Positions 4,324-10,266 of a DNA stretch of 14,819 bases are shown in pieces; within the stretch, counting starts at the first letter, position 1, and each line of letters starts with the position of its first letter. The position numbers and the translations under genes are program-made. The notes below the pieces were generated by a model that did not search any database, was not told the origin of the DNA, and worked only from the letters and a program-made list of their open reading frames with translations. Origin of the DNA: Candidatus Odinarchaeia archaeon (GTDB lineage Archaea; Asgardarchaeota; Odinarchaeia; Odinarchaeales; Odinarchaeaceae); the NCBI GenBank assembly GCA_029856525.1, contig JAHQXC010000030.1, positions 1-14,819 of the forward strand, in the 5' to 3' direction.

Positions 4324-4842
4324 TTGTCTTCGATGAATACTGGTAGCGTAAACTTATACGATGTTAAACGGCTTATCTTACTGTTCAACTATCAGTATAG
4401 AACTAATAAGGGTGAAGAATATTTTAATATCCCTTTATCTGTGCGCAGATCAGGGCGGACGGGTAGAATCCGTTACATCTATTCGGATAAAGTTTTAATC
4501 GCCACTCTGAAACCTACAGACGGTCATCTTATTCTATCGCTGAAAGGGGCTGAGCGATTTTTAAAGATTATTCCTAAACCTTCAAGTAGAGTTATAGTAG
4601 AGTCAGCTGTTGAGTCATTTATACGAGAGGGTAGAAATGTTTACGCTAAACATGTTAAGTCTTGTGATAGAGAGATTAGACCTTTAGATGAAGTATTAGT
4701 AGTTAATGATGAAGATGAGCTTTTAGCAATAGGACGCGCCCGTCTTAACGGTGATGAAATGAAGTTTTTCAAATACGGGGTTGCTGTTGACGTGCGAAAG
4801 GGGGTTGATAGTTTAAATGATGAGGAGAAAGTTGAATCCTAA
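4324..4842 (+). CDS. PUA-domain protein resembling the C-terminal domains of archaeosine tRNA-guanine transglycosylase
   Basis: Motifs YQY, SGRTGRIR, DGHLILSLKGA, GRNVYAKHV...IRPLDEVLVV and GVAVDVRKG. No TIM-barrel catalytic domain. Start may be ATG 4333. Confidence 0.85.
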   Translation: MSSMNTGSVNLYDVKRLILLFNYQYRTNKGEEYFNIPLSVRRSGRTGRIRYIYSDKVLIATLKPTDGHLILSLKGAERFLKIIPKPSSRVIVESAVESFIREGRNVYAKHVKSCDREIRPLDEVLVVNDEDELLAIGRARLNGDEMKFFKYGVAVDVRKGVDSLNDEEKVES

Positions 4843-5898: not shown

Positions 5899-7164
5899 TT
5901 AATTGTTTTTCTGGATGTCACTGAACGTTATTAATTCCGTTTCCATAGGTTTCTTCTGTATTTTCCCGATTCTAGCACCTATAATATATCTTATTTTTTT
6001 CTGTGAGGCTAAGTCGACAATTCTCTGGGTTATAACTCCGTCGAAGGCGACTGTATTAGCCCCCTCTATGCTTTCAAGTTTATCAGCTAACTCTGAGACA
6101 GGCAGCCGAGCGATTTCTTCACCCCCCTCGTTTAGAATTAAAGCCTGAGATGTTTCAGGCAGCGTGGAGATTTTATCAACGACAGCGTCAGGTAAGCTGA
6201 TAGAGGGTTTAACCCGTCTGCCTCTCTTCACAGCTCTATGAGGATATGCATGTCTGCTCACATTCATCTCTTTACCCTTCTCTTCTACCGGTTCAGATTG
6301 AGGCTTATACTCTTTGTAGACTGGTTTATATTGGCTTAAAATCTGTTCTACAGGCACCTTGTTTCTAAGACACTTCACTATTTCTTTTCTCGTAAGCTCC
6401 TCCACTTCCTTCCCAGGAGGGGCTCTAGCCACGTAATCTATATCTGCTACTTGAAGAAGCTCTTTTAGAATAAGCTCTCCGCCTCTATCTCCGTCTGTGA
6501 AAACCGTCACCACTTTCTGATTGCAGAGATCTATTATAGACTTAGGTATATTTGTACCTTCCACGGCGACAGTGTTCCTGAATCCGTGTTTCAACAGATT
6601 TATAACATCCGCTCTTCCCTCTACTATTATTATTGAATCAGACTCTTCTAATCCTGGACCAGCCGGCAGCTCCTCCGGTCCATACTTAGTTATAGACTCT
6701 GTTTTAATAGCGCGCATCACAGCGTCTGTTATATCCGCGGTCTCCGGGGCCACTGTCTCAGTCCATTTTTTTAGAATATCAGCGGCTCTATCCAGTATTT
6801 TCTCTCTTTTAGCACTTCTAACATCTTCGATTTTCTCTAACGTCATTCTCGCAGTGCACGGTCCCACTCGATCTATGGTTTCGAGCGCTGCGGCTAGTAT
6901 AGCTGTTTCAGCTCTGTCTAAGCTCGACGGGACAGTGATCTCGCCTGTTGCTTTCCCGTTTTTCAATTCTAATGTGACGCCTATTCTTCCTATTCGCCCT
7001 GTTTTCTGCAGCTCTCTGAGATCTAGTTCATCTCCTAGCAATCCCTCTGTTTGACCGAAAACAGCCCCTATAACATCCGGTTTTTCAACAACACCGTCAA
7101 CTTCAAACCTGACTTTTATAATATATTTTATAGTGTTAAATTCTTCTTTATCATTTAATGACAA
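5899..7164 (-). CDS. dnaG: Archaeal DnaG-type primase (exosome-associated Toprim protein)
   Basis: Motifs GVVEKPDVIGAVFGQTEGLLG.ELDLRELQKTGRIGRI, Toprim VEGRADV...FTDGDRGG and DGVITQRIVD. GGAGG RBS before the TTG start. Confidence 0.97.
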   Translation of the reverse strand: MSLNDKEEFNTIKYIIKVRFEVDGVVEKPDVIGAVFGQTEGLLGDELDLRELQKTGRIGRIGVTLELKNGKATGEITVPSSLDRAETAILAAALETIDRVGPCTARMTLEKIEDVRSAKREKILDRAADILKKWTETVAPETADITDAVMRAIKTESITKYGPEELPAGPGLEESDSIIIVEGRADVINLLKHGFRNTVAVEGTNIPKSIIDLCNQKVVTVFTDGDRGGELILKELLQVADIDYVARAPPGKEVEELTRKEIVKCLRNKVPVEQILSQYKPVYKEYKPQSEPVEEKGKEMNVSRHAYPHRAVKRGRRVKPSISLPDAVVDKISTLPETSQALILNEGGEEIARLPVSELADKLESIEGANTVAFDGVITQRIVDLASQKKIRYIIGARIGKIQKKPMETELITFSDIQKNN

Positions 7165-7313
7165 TGATGATCATCCTCCCGTGATTGAGTTAATTATAGG
7201 TGAATTAGTTGATTATAGATTAAGCTGATAATCTCTTTAAGCGGGATTATCTCACATAAAACAATTCTTTTTTAGAATAAAAAGCTAATCTTTTTAATAC
7301 TATAACCTTTTAA

Positions 7314-7498
7314 CTTTATCGGCGGGGAAGTCCCCTGTGAAAGCTGAAAAGTATTTATAGTTTCCAATTCAAAAGGATAAAGATGCGGGGCTGGGACACC
7401 CTGAGACGCCTGCTGAGATAGAGCTTCTACCGGTCGAAACACCAGCAAGCTCCGTCATTGAAGCAGGAAACCCCATTCGATGAGGAGGGGTAGTTCAC
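7314..7498 (+). mobile_element. Non-autonomous IS200/IS605-family (tnpB-type) miniature element/remnant
   Basis: The right end GCAGGAAACCCC-N12-GGGGTAGTTCAC has the characteristic subterminal hairpin and a TCAC terminal motif. The frame from 7382 translates DAGLGHPETPAEIELLPVETPASSVIEAGNPIR*, resembling the TnpB C-terminal tail that overlaps the omegaRNA. No tnpA or tnpB body is present. The left boundary is uncertain: after TTTAA (7313) or after TTTAT (7319). Confidence 0.78.
7346..7360 (+). promoter_or_regulatory. BRE + TATA box inside the IS remnant
   Basis: GAAAAG (7346-7351) followed by TATTTATA (7352-7359). The expected start site is ~7381-7385, exactly where the tnpB-tail/omegaRNA-like sequence begins. 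Confidence 0.55.
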
Positions 7499-7518
7499 TC
7501 TATTCTATCATAATATCC
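7383..7518 (+). ncRNA. Putative orphan TnpB omegaRNA (reRNA): scaffold ~7383-7498 plus ~20-nt flank-derived guide
   Basis: Nested helices CCUGC(7409-13)/GCAGG(7463-67), GAGCUU(7421-26)/AAGCUC(7447-52) and GGU/ACC around CGAAAC. RE hairpin CCCC(7471-74)/GGGG(7487-90). The scaffold ends at UUCAC 7498. Guide length is inferred from TnpB biology. Confidence 0.65.
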
Positions 7519-7884
7519 TTTACTCCTCAAAAATTTTGATAGCCCTTCTATCTGAATGATAAAACCTTTTAAAACACTTTTAAGCAGCTTATAATACCGT
7601 AAATTAACTTTAACACCAACGGTTTGGAAATCTTTCACCAGCTTATTTTTTATTTTAGATCCTTCACTATCATAATCAGTTAAAATTATTACTTCTCTGT
7701 ATATTTTAAGCTCCTCTACTAATTCACTTATACTTCTACCGTTTATGCTATGAATGAGCCCTGTGACCCCGACTCTTCTAAGGCTTTCAGCATCTTTTCT
7801 ACCTTCAACTATTATCGGTATAGTGTTAGAGCTGCTATCTAATTCTTCTAAAAGGGCTTGGAGTTTTTTTAAATCTATGTTCAT
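7495..7884 (-). CDS. Small stand-alone Toprim-domain protein (RNase M5/primase-like)
   Basis: Motifs IIVEGRKDAESL and VIILTDYDSEG. Its TGA stop (7495-7497) is the complement of TCA in the IS right end. Confidence 0.88.
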   Translation of the reverse strand: MNIDLKKLQALLEELDSSSNTIPIIVEGRKDAESLRRVGVTGLIHSINGRSISELVEELKIYREVIILTDYDSEGSKIKNKLVKDFQTVGVKVNLRYYKLLKSVLKGFIIQIEGLSKFLRSKGYYDRIE

Positions 7885-8006
7885 TTCAAATTCCTAGTTC
7901 AGCGGTTACCTTAATAGAATTATTGAAATTCTAGTATTTAAAAATCAATAAAATAGTTTTATATTTGATTTTATTCACATTTTTTAAAGCTGAGATGGTG
8001 TGCTCT

Positions 8007-9092
8007 ATGAATGTTAAAGATAAAATAGAATTGATAACTCGTCCCCCAGTTGAAGAAGTAATCACAATGGATGAGTTAACAGCTCTTTTAGAGGAGAAGA
8101 GAACGCCTGTTGCTTACGACGGTTTTGAGCCTTCAGGTTTAGCTCACATCGCCTCAGGGTTAATGAGAGCTTTAAAGATAGCTGACTTATTAGAGGCTGG
8201 TGTGAAATTTAAACTTTTAATCGCCGACTGGCATGCTTGGATAAATGAGAAGATGGGCGGTGATTTAAATTTAATTCAGGATGTTGGTCATTATATTATT
8301 AAAGTCTGGGAGTCGCTTGGAGTTGACACCTCGAAAGTAGAGGTTGTGTGGGCTAGCGATCTGGTTAAAGACCGAGAGTATTGGAGGAAAGTGGTTTTAG
8401 TGATGAAGCATACCACTCTTAAAAGAATGACTAGAGCGTTAACGATAATGGGTCGAACTGAAGGTGAACTACAGTCTTCCGCTCAATTCCTTTACCCTGC
8501 GATGCAGGTCTCGGATATTTTTCAATTAGACGTTGACATTTGCCAGCTTGGGATAGATCAAAGGAAGGCTAATATGCTAGCGCGCGAGATCGCTGAAAGA
8601 CTCGGCTGGCGTAAACCTGTATGTGTTCACCATCATATGTTAATGGGTTTAAAGGGTCCTACAAAGATGGGTGGATTTGATGAAGAAGAGAGGCTGAATC
8701 TTCAAATAGCGTCTAAGATGAGTAAAAGCCATCCTGAAACTTGTATCTACGTTCACGATCCGCCGGAAATTATACTGAGTAAATTATTGGGCGCGTACTG
8801 TCCTGAAAGAGAAGTGGAGTTAAACCCTGTTTTAGATATAGCTAAAAATATAATATTTAGGGGTCAAAGAATGAGATTTCTAATAGAGAGGCCTTCGAAA
8901 TTCGGTGGTGATATAGAGGTCTGCGACTACGGTGAATTAGAGAAACTATACGCGGAGGGGCGTCTTCACCCTCTAGATCTTAAGAAGGCTACCGCTAAAT
9001 ATCTTAGCGATATGCTTAAACCCTGCAGAGAGTATTTTGACAAGCATCCGGAGTACTTGGAGCGTGTAAAAGCTGTGAGCGCTAAATCCTAG
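8007..9092 (+). CDS. tyrS: Tyrosine--tRNA ligase (archaeal/eukaryotic type)
   Basis: Motifs AYDGFEPSG.AHIASG, ADWHA, YPAMQVSDIF, GIDQRKANMLARE, KMSKS and LHPLDLK. Likely start is ATG 8007, downstream of a GATGGTG RBS. Confidence 0.96.
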   Translation: MNVKDKIELITRPPVEEVITMDELTALLEEKRTPVAYDGFEPSGLAHIASGLMRALKIADLLEAGVKFKLLIADWHAWINEKMGGDLNLIQDVGHYIIKVWESLGVDTSKVEVVWASDLVKDREYWRKVVLVMKHTTLKRMTRALTIMGRTEGELQSSAQFLYPAMQVSDIFQLDVDICQLGIDQRKANMLAREIAERLGWRKPVCVHHHMLMGLKGPTKMGGFDEEERLNLQIASKMSKSHPETCIYVHDPPEIILSKLLGAYCPEREVELNPVLDIAKNIIFRGQRMRFLIERPSKFGGDIEVCDYGELEKLYAEGRLHPLDLKKATAKYLSDMLKPCREYFDKHPEYLERVKAVSAKS

Positions 9093-10266
9093 TAACCTCT
9101 CCGTTATCGATTAAAACACTCACAGGCTCACCGGTTTCGAAGCGCAGTGAAAAAGTGTTACAATACGCTCCCGTGTTAATTATACCGATATAGTCCCCGA
9201 TAGATATTCGTTCAGGTAGACAGTAGCTTCGATTTAAAACGTCGAATGAGGCTGGTAGAGGCCCGCCTATCGAGTACTCCTTAGAGTAGTGATCTAACAG
9301 TCTGTTAGCTACTATAAACCTATGGTGGGCTCTGCTTAAAGGCGATATTATATTCGAACCGGCATCTACTATTATCCAGTTTCTGCCACCTATTCTTTTA
9401 ATATTTAACACTTTAGTTAATAGAATAGCAGCGTCACCGATTATGAAACGCCCAGGCTCAAAGTAAATCTCACAGTTTAATGATAAATTTTCCAGTTTCT
9501 CTTTTATCCTACTCCCTATCTCATTTATTTTTTTACCTATAATAGCTGCTTCAGGTAATCCGCCGCCTAGATCGAAAACACTTATTTCACAGCCGGTTTT
9601 ATCTCTTATCAGATTTGAAAGCGCACTCATATGTGTAAGTGTTTCCGTATAATGGTTTAAATTAAAATCCTGTGTTCTTAAATGGCGGTGAAGCGCTGAA
9701 AGTCTAATATAATTTAATTTTTTAACATATTCTTCAAGTATAGCGGTTTCTGCTTCATCTAAAAAAACTCCTATTTTAGAATGTGAACCGGGATTTAATG
9801 TTAAACCGACTTTTTGTATAACCCGCAGCTCTCTAGCGACGCTATTAATGGTTTTAAGTTCTTCTAAACTATCCGCGTTTATCAGATTCACACCATACTC
9901 AACAGCTTTTCTAATCGCATGTAAAGGTTTATGAGGACCGTTAAAAATAATCATATCCGGGTTAACGTTATTCAAAGCTATCTCTAGTTCAGTGTCTGAG
10001 CTAACTTCAGCTCCAATTCCATTTTCATGTATTATACTGCATATCTTAGAATTCGGATTCGCTTTATAAGAATAAAAAATCCTGTTTTTAAAATATCCTT
10101 CAAATATTCTTCGAAGTGTTATACAATTCTCTTTTATTCGCTTAGTAGAATAAACATAGACGGGTGTTCCAAACTCTTCTACAATATCTTTAAAACAGAT
10201 GTTTTCAATTAGAAGGCAGCCTTCACCGTCTGATTTAAAATGCGGATACTGTGTTAAATTGAACAT
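9082..10266 (-). CDS. Fold-type III PLP-dependent decarboxylase homologue (DAP/Orn/Arg decarboxylase family), atypical active site
   Basis: Motifs FGTPVYVYS, YSYKAN (PLP Lys68), FNGPHK, DLGGG, FEPGRF, VDAG and NTGAY. The canonical GP.C..D motif reads GPLPASFD and H.GSQ reads HLRTQ, so lysA is not assigned. Confidence 0.8.
   Translation of the reverse strand: MFNLTQYPHFKSDGEGCLLIENICFKDIVEEFGTPVYVYSTKRIKENCITLRRIFEGYFKNRIFYSYKANPNSKICSIIHENGIGAEVSSDTELEIALNNVNPDMIIFNGPHKPLHAIRKAVEYGVNLINADSLEELKTINSVARELRVIQKVGLTLNPGSHSKIGVFLDEAETAILEEYVKKLNYIRLSALHRHLRTQDFNLNHYTETLTHMSALSNLIRDKTGCEISVFDLGGGLPEAAIIGKKINEIGSRIKEKLENLSLNCEIYFEPGRFIIGDAAILLTKVLNIKRIGGRNWIIVDAGSNIISPLSRAHHRFIVANRLLDHYSKEYSIGGPLPASFDVLNRSYCLPERISIGDYIGIINTGAYCNTFSLRFETGEPVSVLIDNGEVTRI

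Follow-up and report, generated by a model that had tools for sequence, protein, structure and literature searches.

The omegaRNA (reRNA) of IS605/IS1341-type TnpB systems, e.g. that of ISDra2, overlaps the 3' end of tnpB and folds into a multi-stem scaffold with a long-range, pseudoknot-like pairing near the guide; the RNA ends at the transposon right end (RE), with the adjoining flank serving as the guide. Among the relatives of such transposons are palindrome-associated transposable elements (PATEs), and the PATE/MITE elements of Haloquadratum and Geobacillus stearothermophilus are protein-less, multi-copy elements that retain the left end (LE) and RE of a tnpA/tnpB parent, insert on the 3' side of a short motif with no duplication of the target, and carry an omegaRNA needing a TnpB in trans. 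PATE-like IS605 elements without genes often encode omegaRNAs, which must be used in trans by the TnpBs of other elements (Meers et al. 2023, PMC10055086).

Here we analysed the window, i.e. the whole stretch of 14,819 nucleotides under study, which belongs to a MAG of the Asgard phylum (1.32 Mb, 127 contigs, 93% complete, 38% GC). On sequence grounds, its plus-strand segment 7315-7498 is a non-autonomous, protein-less IS200/IS605-family element (PATE/MITE), fitting the published description of protein-less PATEs that carry omegaRNAs. The element shares each of the properties listed above with the Haloquadratum and Geobacillus stearothermophilus elements, and resembles ISDra2-type omegaRNAs in its origin from a tnpB 3' end, its multi-stem fold, its long-range pairing and its termination at the RE. 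Unlike the described PATE/MITE elements, it resides in an Asgard-phylum archaeon, it has an archaeal BRE/TATA box directly before the scaffold, such that the whole transcript would be guide RNA, and its cognate TnpA and TnpB were not found in the genome. In contrast to ISDra2-type omegaRNAs, which are processed from the tnpB mRNA, the RNA is detached from any tnpB ORF, is compact (~118 nt) and would use a dedicated promoter. To the published PATEs, this locus appears to add two details, an archaeal promoter immediately in front of the scaffold and the repeated occurrence of this arrangement in independently formed MITEs, which have different junctions, in genomes G014 and G018 (the latter of the same phylum, with a contig identical to one of Candidatus Wukongarchaeum yapensis). 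The origin and anatomy of the element, as an IS200/IS605 derivative consisting of promoter, omegaRNA scaffold and transposon ends, are well supported, and we regard them as close to certain.

Anatomy, insertion site and dispersed copies

The window is AT-rich, and within it a GC-rich block (7381-7498) sits between two minus-strand Toprim genes (Table 1). This block matched no Rfam family at gathering thresholds, giving chance-level matches only at E-values up to 10, and no tRNA was predicted in it by ARAGORN. The ORFs of the element encode neither transposase nor nuclease, only a frameshifted relic of ~38 codons. An initial annotation of this DNA had proposed a BRE/TATA box at 7346-7359, and its conservation beyond the window bears that proposal out. 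The 3' end of the 129-aa Toprim gene is overlapped in antisense by the presumed guide, and a possible archaeal terminator, the first T4 run, occupies 7534-7537.

Table 1. Features of the element, its predicted RNA and the neighbouring genes in the window.
Feature	Position	Strand	Remarks
TTAAC, target/likely TAM	7310..7314	+	directly 5' of the element; TTTTAAC from 7308; a TTTAAC-like sequence precedes nearly all copies and all parent LEs
Left end (LE), truncated	7315..7345	+	TTTATCGGC and GGGGAAGTCCCC kept; 3' arm of the LE hairpin missing (alignment A1)
BRE/TATA box GAAAAGTATTTATA	7346..7359	+	tnpA promoter of the parent element; conserved in copies and in LEs of full-length elements
OmegaRNA scaffold	7381..7498	+	remnant of the final ~38 tnpB codons together with the right end; covariance model R1 match, peptide homology
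Hairpin 1	7388-7401	+	loop GGGAC; covariation in parents
P2	7409-7413/7463-7467	+	covarying helix
P3	7417-7424/7449-7456	+	covarying helix
Apical stem	7430-7434/7441-7445	+	
Terminal hairpin	7470-7475/7486-7491	+	
Tail AGUUCAC	7492-7498	+	
Long-range pairing	7394-7397 with 7493-7496	+	hairpin-1 loop GGAC with tail GUUC
Right end (RE) terminus ...GTAGTTCAC	to 7498	+	near-invariant in parents
Presumed guide segment, 3' flank UCUAUUCUAUCAUAAUAUCC	7499..7518	+	assigned by position and by analogy with TnpB omegaRNAs
129-aa Toprim-domain gene	7495..7884	-	TGA stop (7497-7495) supplied by the terminal TTCAC of the element
421-aa Toprim protein, downstream neighbour	5899..7164	-	Pfam Toprim_4/Toprim matches

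Relative to most copies and parents, the LE of the window copy has a 14-nt deletion that corresponds to the 3' arm of the LE hairpin (alignment A1). The same arm is deleted in four other copies, and a 4-bp alternative GGGG/CCCC hairpin exists; parent LEs possess a covarying outer stem (TCGGC/GCCGA) and an inner hairpin (CCCC..GGGG). The RE hairpin of the window copy is present with one to two mismatches, the hairpin-1 stem is weakened, and P3 and the apical stem each contain a single mismatch. Decayed mobility had been suspected in the initial annotation from a GAAA tetramer near the RE, where GAAG would be expected. The tetramer was read accurately, most parents having GGAAGC, but GAAA is also found in the intact elements L092 and L114, and in the RNA its last base closes the terminal hairpin (G-U to A-U). 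Mobility has probably decayed as suspected, but for a different reason, namely the deleted 3' arm of the LE hairpin.

At the window locus, the left flank (to ~7318) and the right flank (from ~7502) are contiguous in congener G001, with the junction resolved only to within a few bases because the intergenic DNA has diverged, and all three congeneric genomes are without the element at the orthologous position. For a second copy (C29), the empty site in congener G002 reads cggcTTTTAAC and continues directly into the right flank. At the empty orthologous sites of these two copies TTAAC is kept and target duplication is absent, and the occupied site is laid out as X-TTAAC-TTTATCGG...GTAGTTCAC-flank, the element extending from TTTATCGG to GTAGTTCAC, again with no duplication. 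Judged from these alignments, the window insertion is lineage-specific, TTAAC is likely the TAM, and TTCAC its likely counterpart at the right end. Insertion replaced the last codons of the 129-aa Toprim gene, whose G001 ortholog ends in ..DELK and whose window version ends in ..DRIE before the stop; the 421-aa neighbour is read as DnaG-like from a scan that matched Toprim domains only. Empty-site searches for two further copies (C16 and C93a) gave unreadable junctions, the intergenic DNA being diverged or extra sequence inserted. The C16 copy (C16:6428-6980, L002:1401-1953) lies inside a segment of ~554 nt that is absent from the orthologous site in G001, with ~340 nt of extra DNA accompanying the MITE.

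Whereas the initial annotation envisaged a single orphan guide-RNA gene, the cassette still carries its LE and is one of ~21 dispersed copies. A search of the genome with window 7300-7530 returned 28 matches, and by means of blastn, MAFFT and nhmmer we identified ~21 near-full copies of a ~190-bp unit together with partial copies and variants. Sister copies with different flanks, which the annotation had proposed to look for, are therefore present, but the intact cognate tnpB and tnpA that were to be sought alongside them were not found in the genome. Copy boundaries are sharp, beginning with (T)TTTAAC-TTTATCGG and ending with GGGGTAGTTCAC between unrelated flanks, and the box AAAAGTATTTATAG is kept across the MITE family. 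Among the 17 copies of this genome in alignment A1, 12 represent a short form which lacks 24 nt (window 7390-7413) and hence hairpin 1, and consequently also the long-range pairing; the window copy represents the long form. Pairwise identity between copies ranges from 0.55 to 0.89 with a median of 0.78 (11-45% diverged), and there are no near-identical pairs. Segment-wise comparison found conservation among copies to be even along the element, with no stronger constraint on promoter or RNA; given this divergence and even conservation, no recent burst is visible. Three contigs (C17, C31 and C85) terminate inside element copies, and copies are absent from the three congeners of the same genus.

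Covariation in the omegaRNA scaffold

A covariance model, as the initial annotation had recommended, was built (R1) from alignment A4, comprising 36 intact tnpB 3' ends from other archaea, and from these parents alone. The window element aligns with all 36 tnpB 3' ends over its whole RNA part, and R1 matched window 7381-7498 with 91.9 bits (E 4.5e-18, model positions 1-121), its best match in the genome. Re-scanned training parents scored 96-107 bits, and independently formed MITEs in two other genomes scored 111 and 88 bits. Homology of the block to tnpB 3' ends and IS200/IS605 right ends, on which the earlier reading had been staked, is thus present.

Five helices are supported in alignment A4, corresponding to hairpin 1, P2, P3, the terminal hairpin and the long-range GGAC-GUUC pairing. 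In the parents, 95.7% of cells are paired, as opposed to 36-47% with partners slid, and changes on both sides of a pair occur in 116 cells versus 36.6 in shuffles, with none of 500 shuffles reaching the observed value; both-side change is seen in 16 of the 28 pairs. The long-range pairing is kept in all 36 parents and includes two A-U to G-C compensations. Two stems drawn in the initial annotation (7409-13/7463-67 and 7421-26/7447-52) fall into the register of the covarying P2 and P3, and the CCCC/GGGG hairpin with terminal GTAGTTCAC that it placed at the end of the RNA is near-invariant across the 36 intact parents. Its candidate pseudoknot partners for the tail, UGAG (7402-05) and UGAA (7459-62), do not hold, the tail GUUC covarying instead with GGAC at 7394-7397. 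Single-sequence folding of the window was not better than that of shuffles (z = -0.91), and the case is accordingly built on homology and covariation, with folding energy set aside.

Parent elements and the search for a partner

Same-phylum relatives carry full-length elements with the same ends. Element L058 comprises LE, TATA box, decayed tnpA, tnpB and RE, element L056 comprises LE, tnpA, a frameshifted tnpB and RE, and L059 and L060 are tnpB genes terminating in the same RE. An HMM of the MITE matched the LE of full-length elements (e.g. L056, L058, L084, L111 and L118) with E-values of 1e-10 to 1e-17, and the tnpB 3' end/RE of the same elements with E-values of 1e-10 to 1e-24. From a one-genome-per-species scan, the parent TnpB clade was found in many archaeal phyla, with the nearest parents in Brockarchaeota (L118), Bathyarchaeota (L111) and Nitrososphaeria (L084); the closest full-length relatives found are from hot-spring MAGs. 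These three parents have a common C-terminus, ..IKMRGW(D/N).P..PAE..PL....PASS(I/L)(I/V)EAGS.LR, that ends at the stop codon, and the DNA string ATAAAGATGCGGGG is common to them and the window.

The TnpB-like C-terminal tail recognised in the initial annotation is corroborated by a relic frame, ..PETPAEIELLPVETPASSVIEAGNPIR, which matches the intact TnpB C-termini of L118 (..PDSPAETKPLLVEIPASSIVEAGSSLR) and L058 (..VIPVSSVIEGGSPLR), all three ending in a stop codon, as well as further TnpB C-termini of same-phylum relatives (..GLGQPFVPLEMKPLRVIPVSSVIEGGSPLR and ..EIEPLPREISASSVVEAGSFLR, likewise followed by a stop). Upstream, the relic ATG-CGG-GGC-TGG (MRGW) matches the parents' IKMRGW; a 1-nt deletion, located behind 7397, accounts for the change of frame. 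Full-length elements of other phyla have the BRE/TATA box in their LE as well, 25-35 nt ahead of the tnpA ATG, and so the cassette would represent a tnpA promoter fused to a tnpB end. An internal deletion fusing promoter to omegaRNA, as suggested initially, is supported by the match of the parents' LE promoter, tnpB 3' end and RE, and would have placed the tnpA promoter ~25 nt in front of the remaining 3' portion of tnpB (its last ~118 nt) and the RE. We considered a deletion junction at the ATG (7383) and dropped it because the nearest parents show ATAAAGATGCGGGG to be already tnpB sequence; the junction would accordingly lie a few bases further 5', at a place that cannot be fixed exactly.

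The TnpBs of the three nearest parents (L084:1171-2301, L111:1171-2373 and L118:1171-2301) are without the CxxC...CxxC zinc ribbon that L058 and L059 possess. In these unusually compact proteins, ..NPRGTSEGLSYENPYRDWISA.. runs straight into the C-terminal tail.

Searches for a partner protein were carried out across the MAG and its relatives. The parent clade was not found in the 93%-complete assembly by tblastn with three parent TnpBs, nor did a profile search find a parent-clade TnpB in the MAG or its three congeners, which include a single-contig genome; the same profile search found it in 17 of 37 more distant relatives. Only two full-length TnpBs are present in the MAG (C93, 426 aa; C44, 428 aa), both ~25% identical to the parents, and R1 fits the tnpB 3' end of C93 weakly (20.7 bits) and that of C44 not at all. 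The sole TnpA (C44) is 32% identical to the TnpA of the nearest parents, and a parent-clade TnpA was not found in the 93%-complete assembly or the three congeners. Apart from these, the MAG gave a TnpB-like match to a zinc-ribbon fragment of 112 aa, which has 46% identity with part of the TnpB of C44, and two zinc-ribbon matches below threshold; no nuclease-dead TnpB was identified in the genome, neighbouring the element or elsewhere. With a parent-clade TnpB not found and a nuclease-dead TnpB not identified, these searches lend no support to the idea, put forward in the initial annotation, that the RNA is loaded by a TnpB or a nuclease-dead regulator encoded elsewhere. Comparison of the guides of 17 copies with the genome yielded partial matches of 14-19 nt only, none shown to be TAM-adjacent, which we read as chance, and the guide of the window copy matched only its own flank, with no second TAM-adjacent match in the genome.

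Among public sequencing runs, the locus was found in DNA contigs of a sediment metagenome only and in no RNA run. We compared window 6900-7900 with the DNA contigs of this metagenome (run X1), the probable source of the genome. One contig matches the LE and promoter of the window as far as 7368, where it passes into an L084-like tnpA start, and in other contigs there are tnpB 3' ends of the parent type, with the additional A behind 7397 by which the frame is restored. The occurrence of such tnpA start and tnpB 3' end contigs implies that full-length parents exist in the same sample. Depths of the parent-like contigs were 129.5 and 6.75, compared to about 16-18 for the genome itself. No joint skipping the element was found among the X1 contigs, a result that is uninformative on excision as contigs drop rare variants. 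Given the contigs ending in copies, the parent-like X1 contigs and the incompleteness of the MAG, a full-length cognate element may be present in the same organism.

Proposed origin, alternatives and significance

As the best explanation overall, we consider it very likely that the element is a protein-less PATE/MITE which arose by internal deletion, spread, and is now most likely an orphan relic that no longer moves. Within a tnpA-tnpB parent, the deletion would have removed the DNA from the tnpA start region through to the last ~118 nt of tnpB, leaving the LE with the tnpA promoter, a complete omegaRNA scaffold and the RE. This remainder would then have spread to ~21 sites in the genome, with the window copy landing directly 3' of TTAAC, within the final codons of the small Toprim gene. 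Should the promoter be active, a transcript begun at ~7381-7384 would comprise the scaffold followed by a guide copied from the 3' flank, and within the IS200/IS605 life cycle a TnpB acting in trans with such an RNA would cut the empty donor site (TTAAC and flank) again and thereby bring the element back. An immobile relic is the most likely present state because the partner was not found, the copies have drifted and the LE hairpin arm has been lost, and the window element itself is probably an inactive orphan. We infer transcription, guide use and present inactivity of the cassette from sequence features. Within the genome, the RNA part is best preserved in the window copy, where it comes close to those of intact genes; for an old relic this is somewhat unexpected. 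Furthermore, in three MITEs of independent formation the complete scaffold follows a TATA box at a distance of ~25-30 nt, a retention of promoter and scaffold that hints at selection for a transcribed omegaRNA.

Such retention in independent MITE lineages would also be in keeping with a transcribed, active guide gene operating in trans, with a cognate TnpB, unassembled or borne by a virus or plasmid, taking up its omegaRNA and re-cutting empty TTAAC sites to hold MITE copies in place; homing in trans of this kind has been proposed for PATEs (PMC10055086). The full-length scaffold (91.9 bits) and conserved promoter are consistent with this possibility, as are a source sample containing parent-like tnpA starts and tnpB 3' ends and the contigs that break inside copies. 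We nevertheless hold it to be unlikely, since a parent-clade TnpB is absent from the assembly and three congeners, 12 of the 17 A1 copies lack hairpin 1 and the long-range pairing, nothing in the divergence of the copies (11-45%, without near-identical pairs) suggests recent activity, and the parent-like metagenome contigs differ in depth from the genome (129.5 and 6.75 versus about 16-18). It is, in our estimation, quite unlikely that the ~21 promoter-omegaRNA mini-elements are as a group live guide-RNA genes loaded by a TnpB encoded apart (unassembled, virus- or plasmid-borne, or a distant resident). If true, the host or the element family would be maintaining, or making use of, many programmable guides served by one nuclease, and a division of labour resembling that of a CRISPR array would have arisen within a family of transposons in an Asgard archaeon.

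An exapted role is improbable. The outward promoter might drive an antisense RNA over the Toprim 3' end, the insertion might insulate the two Toprim genes from one another, or the RNA might guide a nuclease-dead TnpB-like regulator, as in TldR-type domesticated TnpBs, where the guide RNA would similarly be used outside its transposition role. In favour of exaptation, the promoter is aimed into the 3' end of the minus-strand Toprim gene, for which the element supplies the stop codon; yet the insertion is lineage-specific and one of ~21 scattered copies, and conservation is even along the element. Unlike in TldR systems, the window guide matches only its own flank, the guides are without a second TAM-adjacent target, and no nuclease-dead TnpB was identified in the genome, whose TnpB-like matches beyond the two full-length TnpBs are the 112-aa zinc-ribbon fragment and the two sub-threshold ones. 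That the 3' block comprises only single-stranded DNA signals for TnpA at the right end, and not RNA, is extremely improbable: although IS200/IS605 right ends classically have such a terminal hairpin and TTCAC, and the LE and RE hairpins are alike in each having GGAAG followed by CCCC..GGGG, covariation runs through P2, P3 and hairpin 1, >100 nt from the end, the long-range pairing reaches the tail just before the guide, and the block corresponds to the omegaRNA-encoding region of characterised TnpB systems (PMC10055086).

Viewed as a PATE/MITE formed by internal deletion, the locus would provide a clean natural minimal unit of an RNA-guided transposon, consisting of ends, promoter and guide scaffold with no protein, and would illustrate how RNA-guided elements outlive their nuclease. 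The locus and the 36-member alignment jointly define a compact, ~118-nt omegaRNA for a TnpB clade with members in many archaeal phyla, and the resulting model, with its five helices, covarying pseudoknot-like pairing and likely TTAAC TAM, could guide reconstitution experiments.

Additional mini-elements were also observed in the genome. At C44:8000-8185 (L026/L027), a second mini-cassette abuts an intact tnpA (8180-8611) and tnpB (8616-9899); it begins much like an LE, has a TATA-rich promoter of a different kind and includes an omegaRNA-like block that closes with the relic of a TnpB C-terminus (..EAYGFNRG and stop), and its 3' half resembles the adjoining tnpB's own 3' end. This cassette is either a tandem of MITE and IS or an element with a duplicated guide module. 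Five other mini-elements (C18:1813-2049, C91:3130-3363, C125:9400-9552, C93:3500-3720 and C33:15331-15650) combine a window-type left end and a TTCAC-type right end with different internal sequence. Solitary left ends that continue into unrelated DNA are found at C10:5042, C3:4618, C82:20388 and C84:613, the one at C3:4618 being accompanied by an inverted LE-like copy (4791-4824). Lastly, a tnpB-only element (C93:26009-27305, L021) terminates exactly at the contig end with GGAGTAGCTCAC and has five mini-derivatives (C125:32-230, C71:10614-10760, C29:3851-3970, C77:29838-29927 and C78:10460-10531) that keep only the last 24-49 codons, and in one case also the first 20; these constitute a second omegaRNA-bearing MITE family, the TnpB of which is present in the genome.
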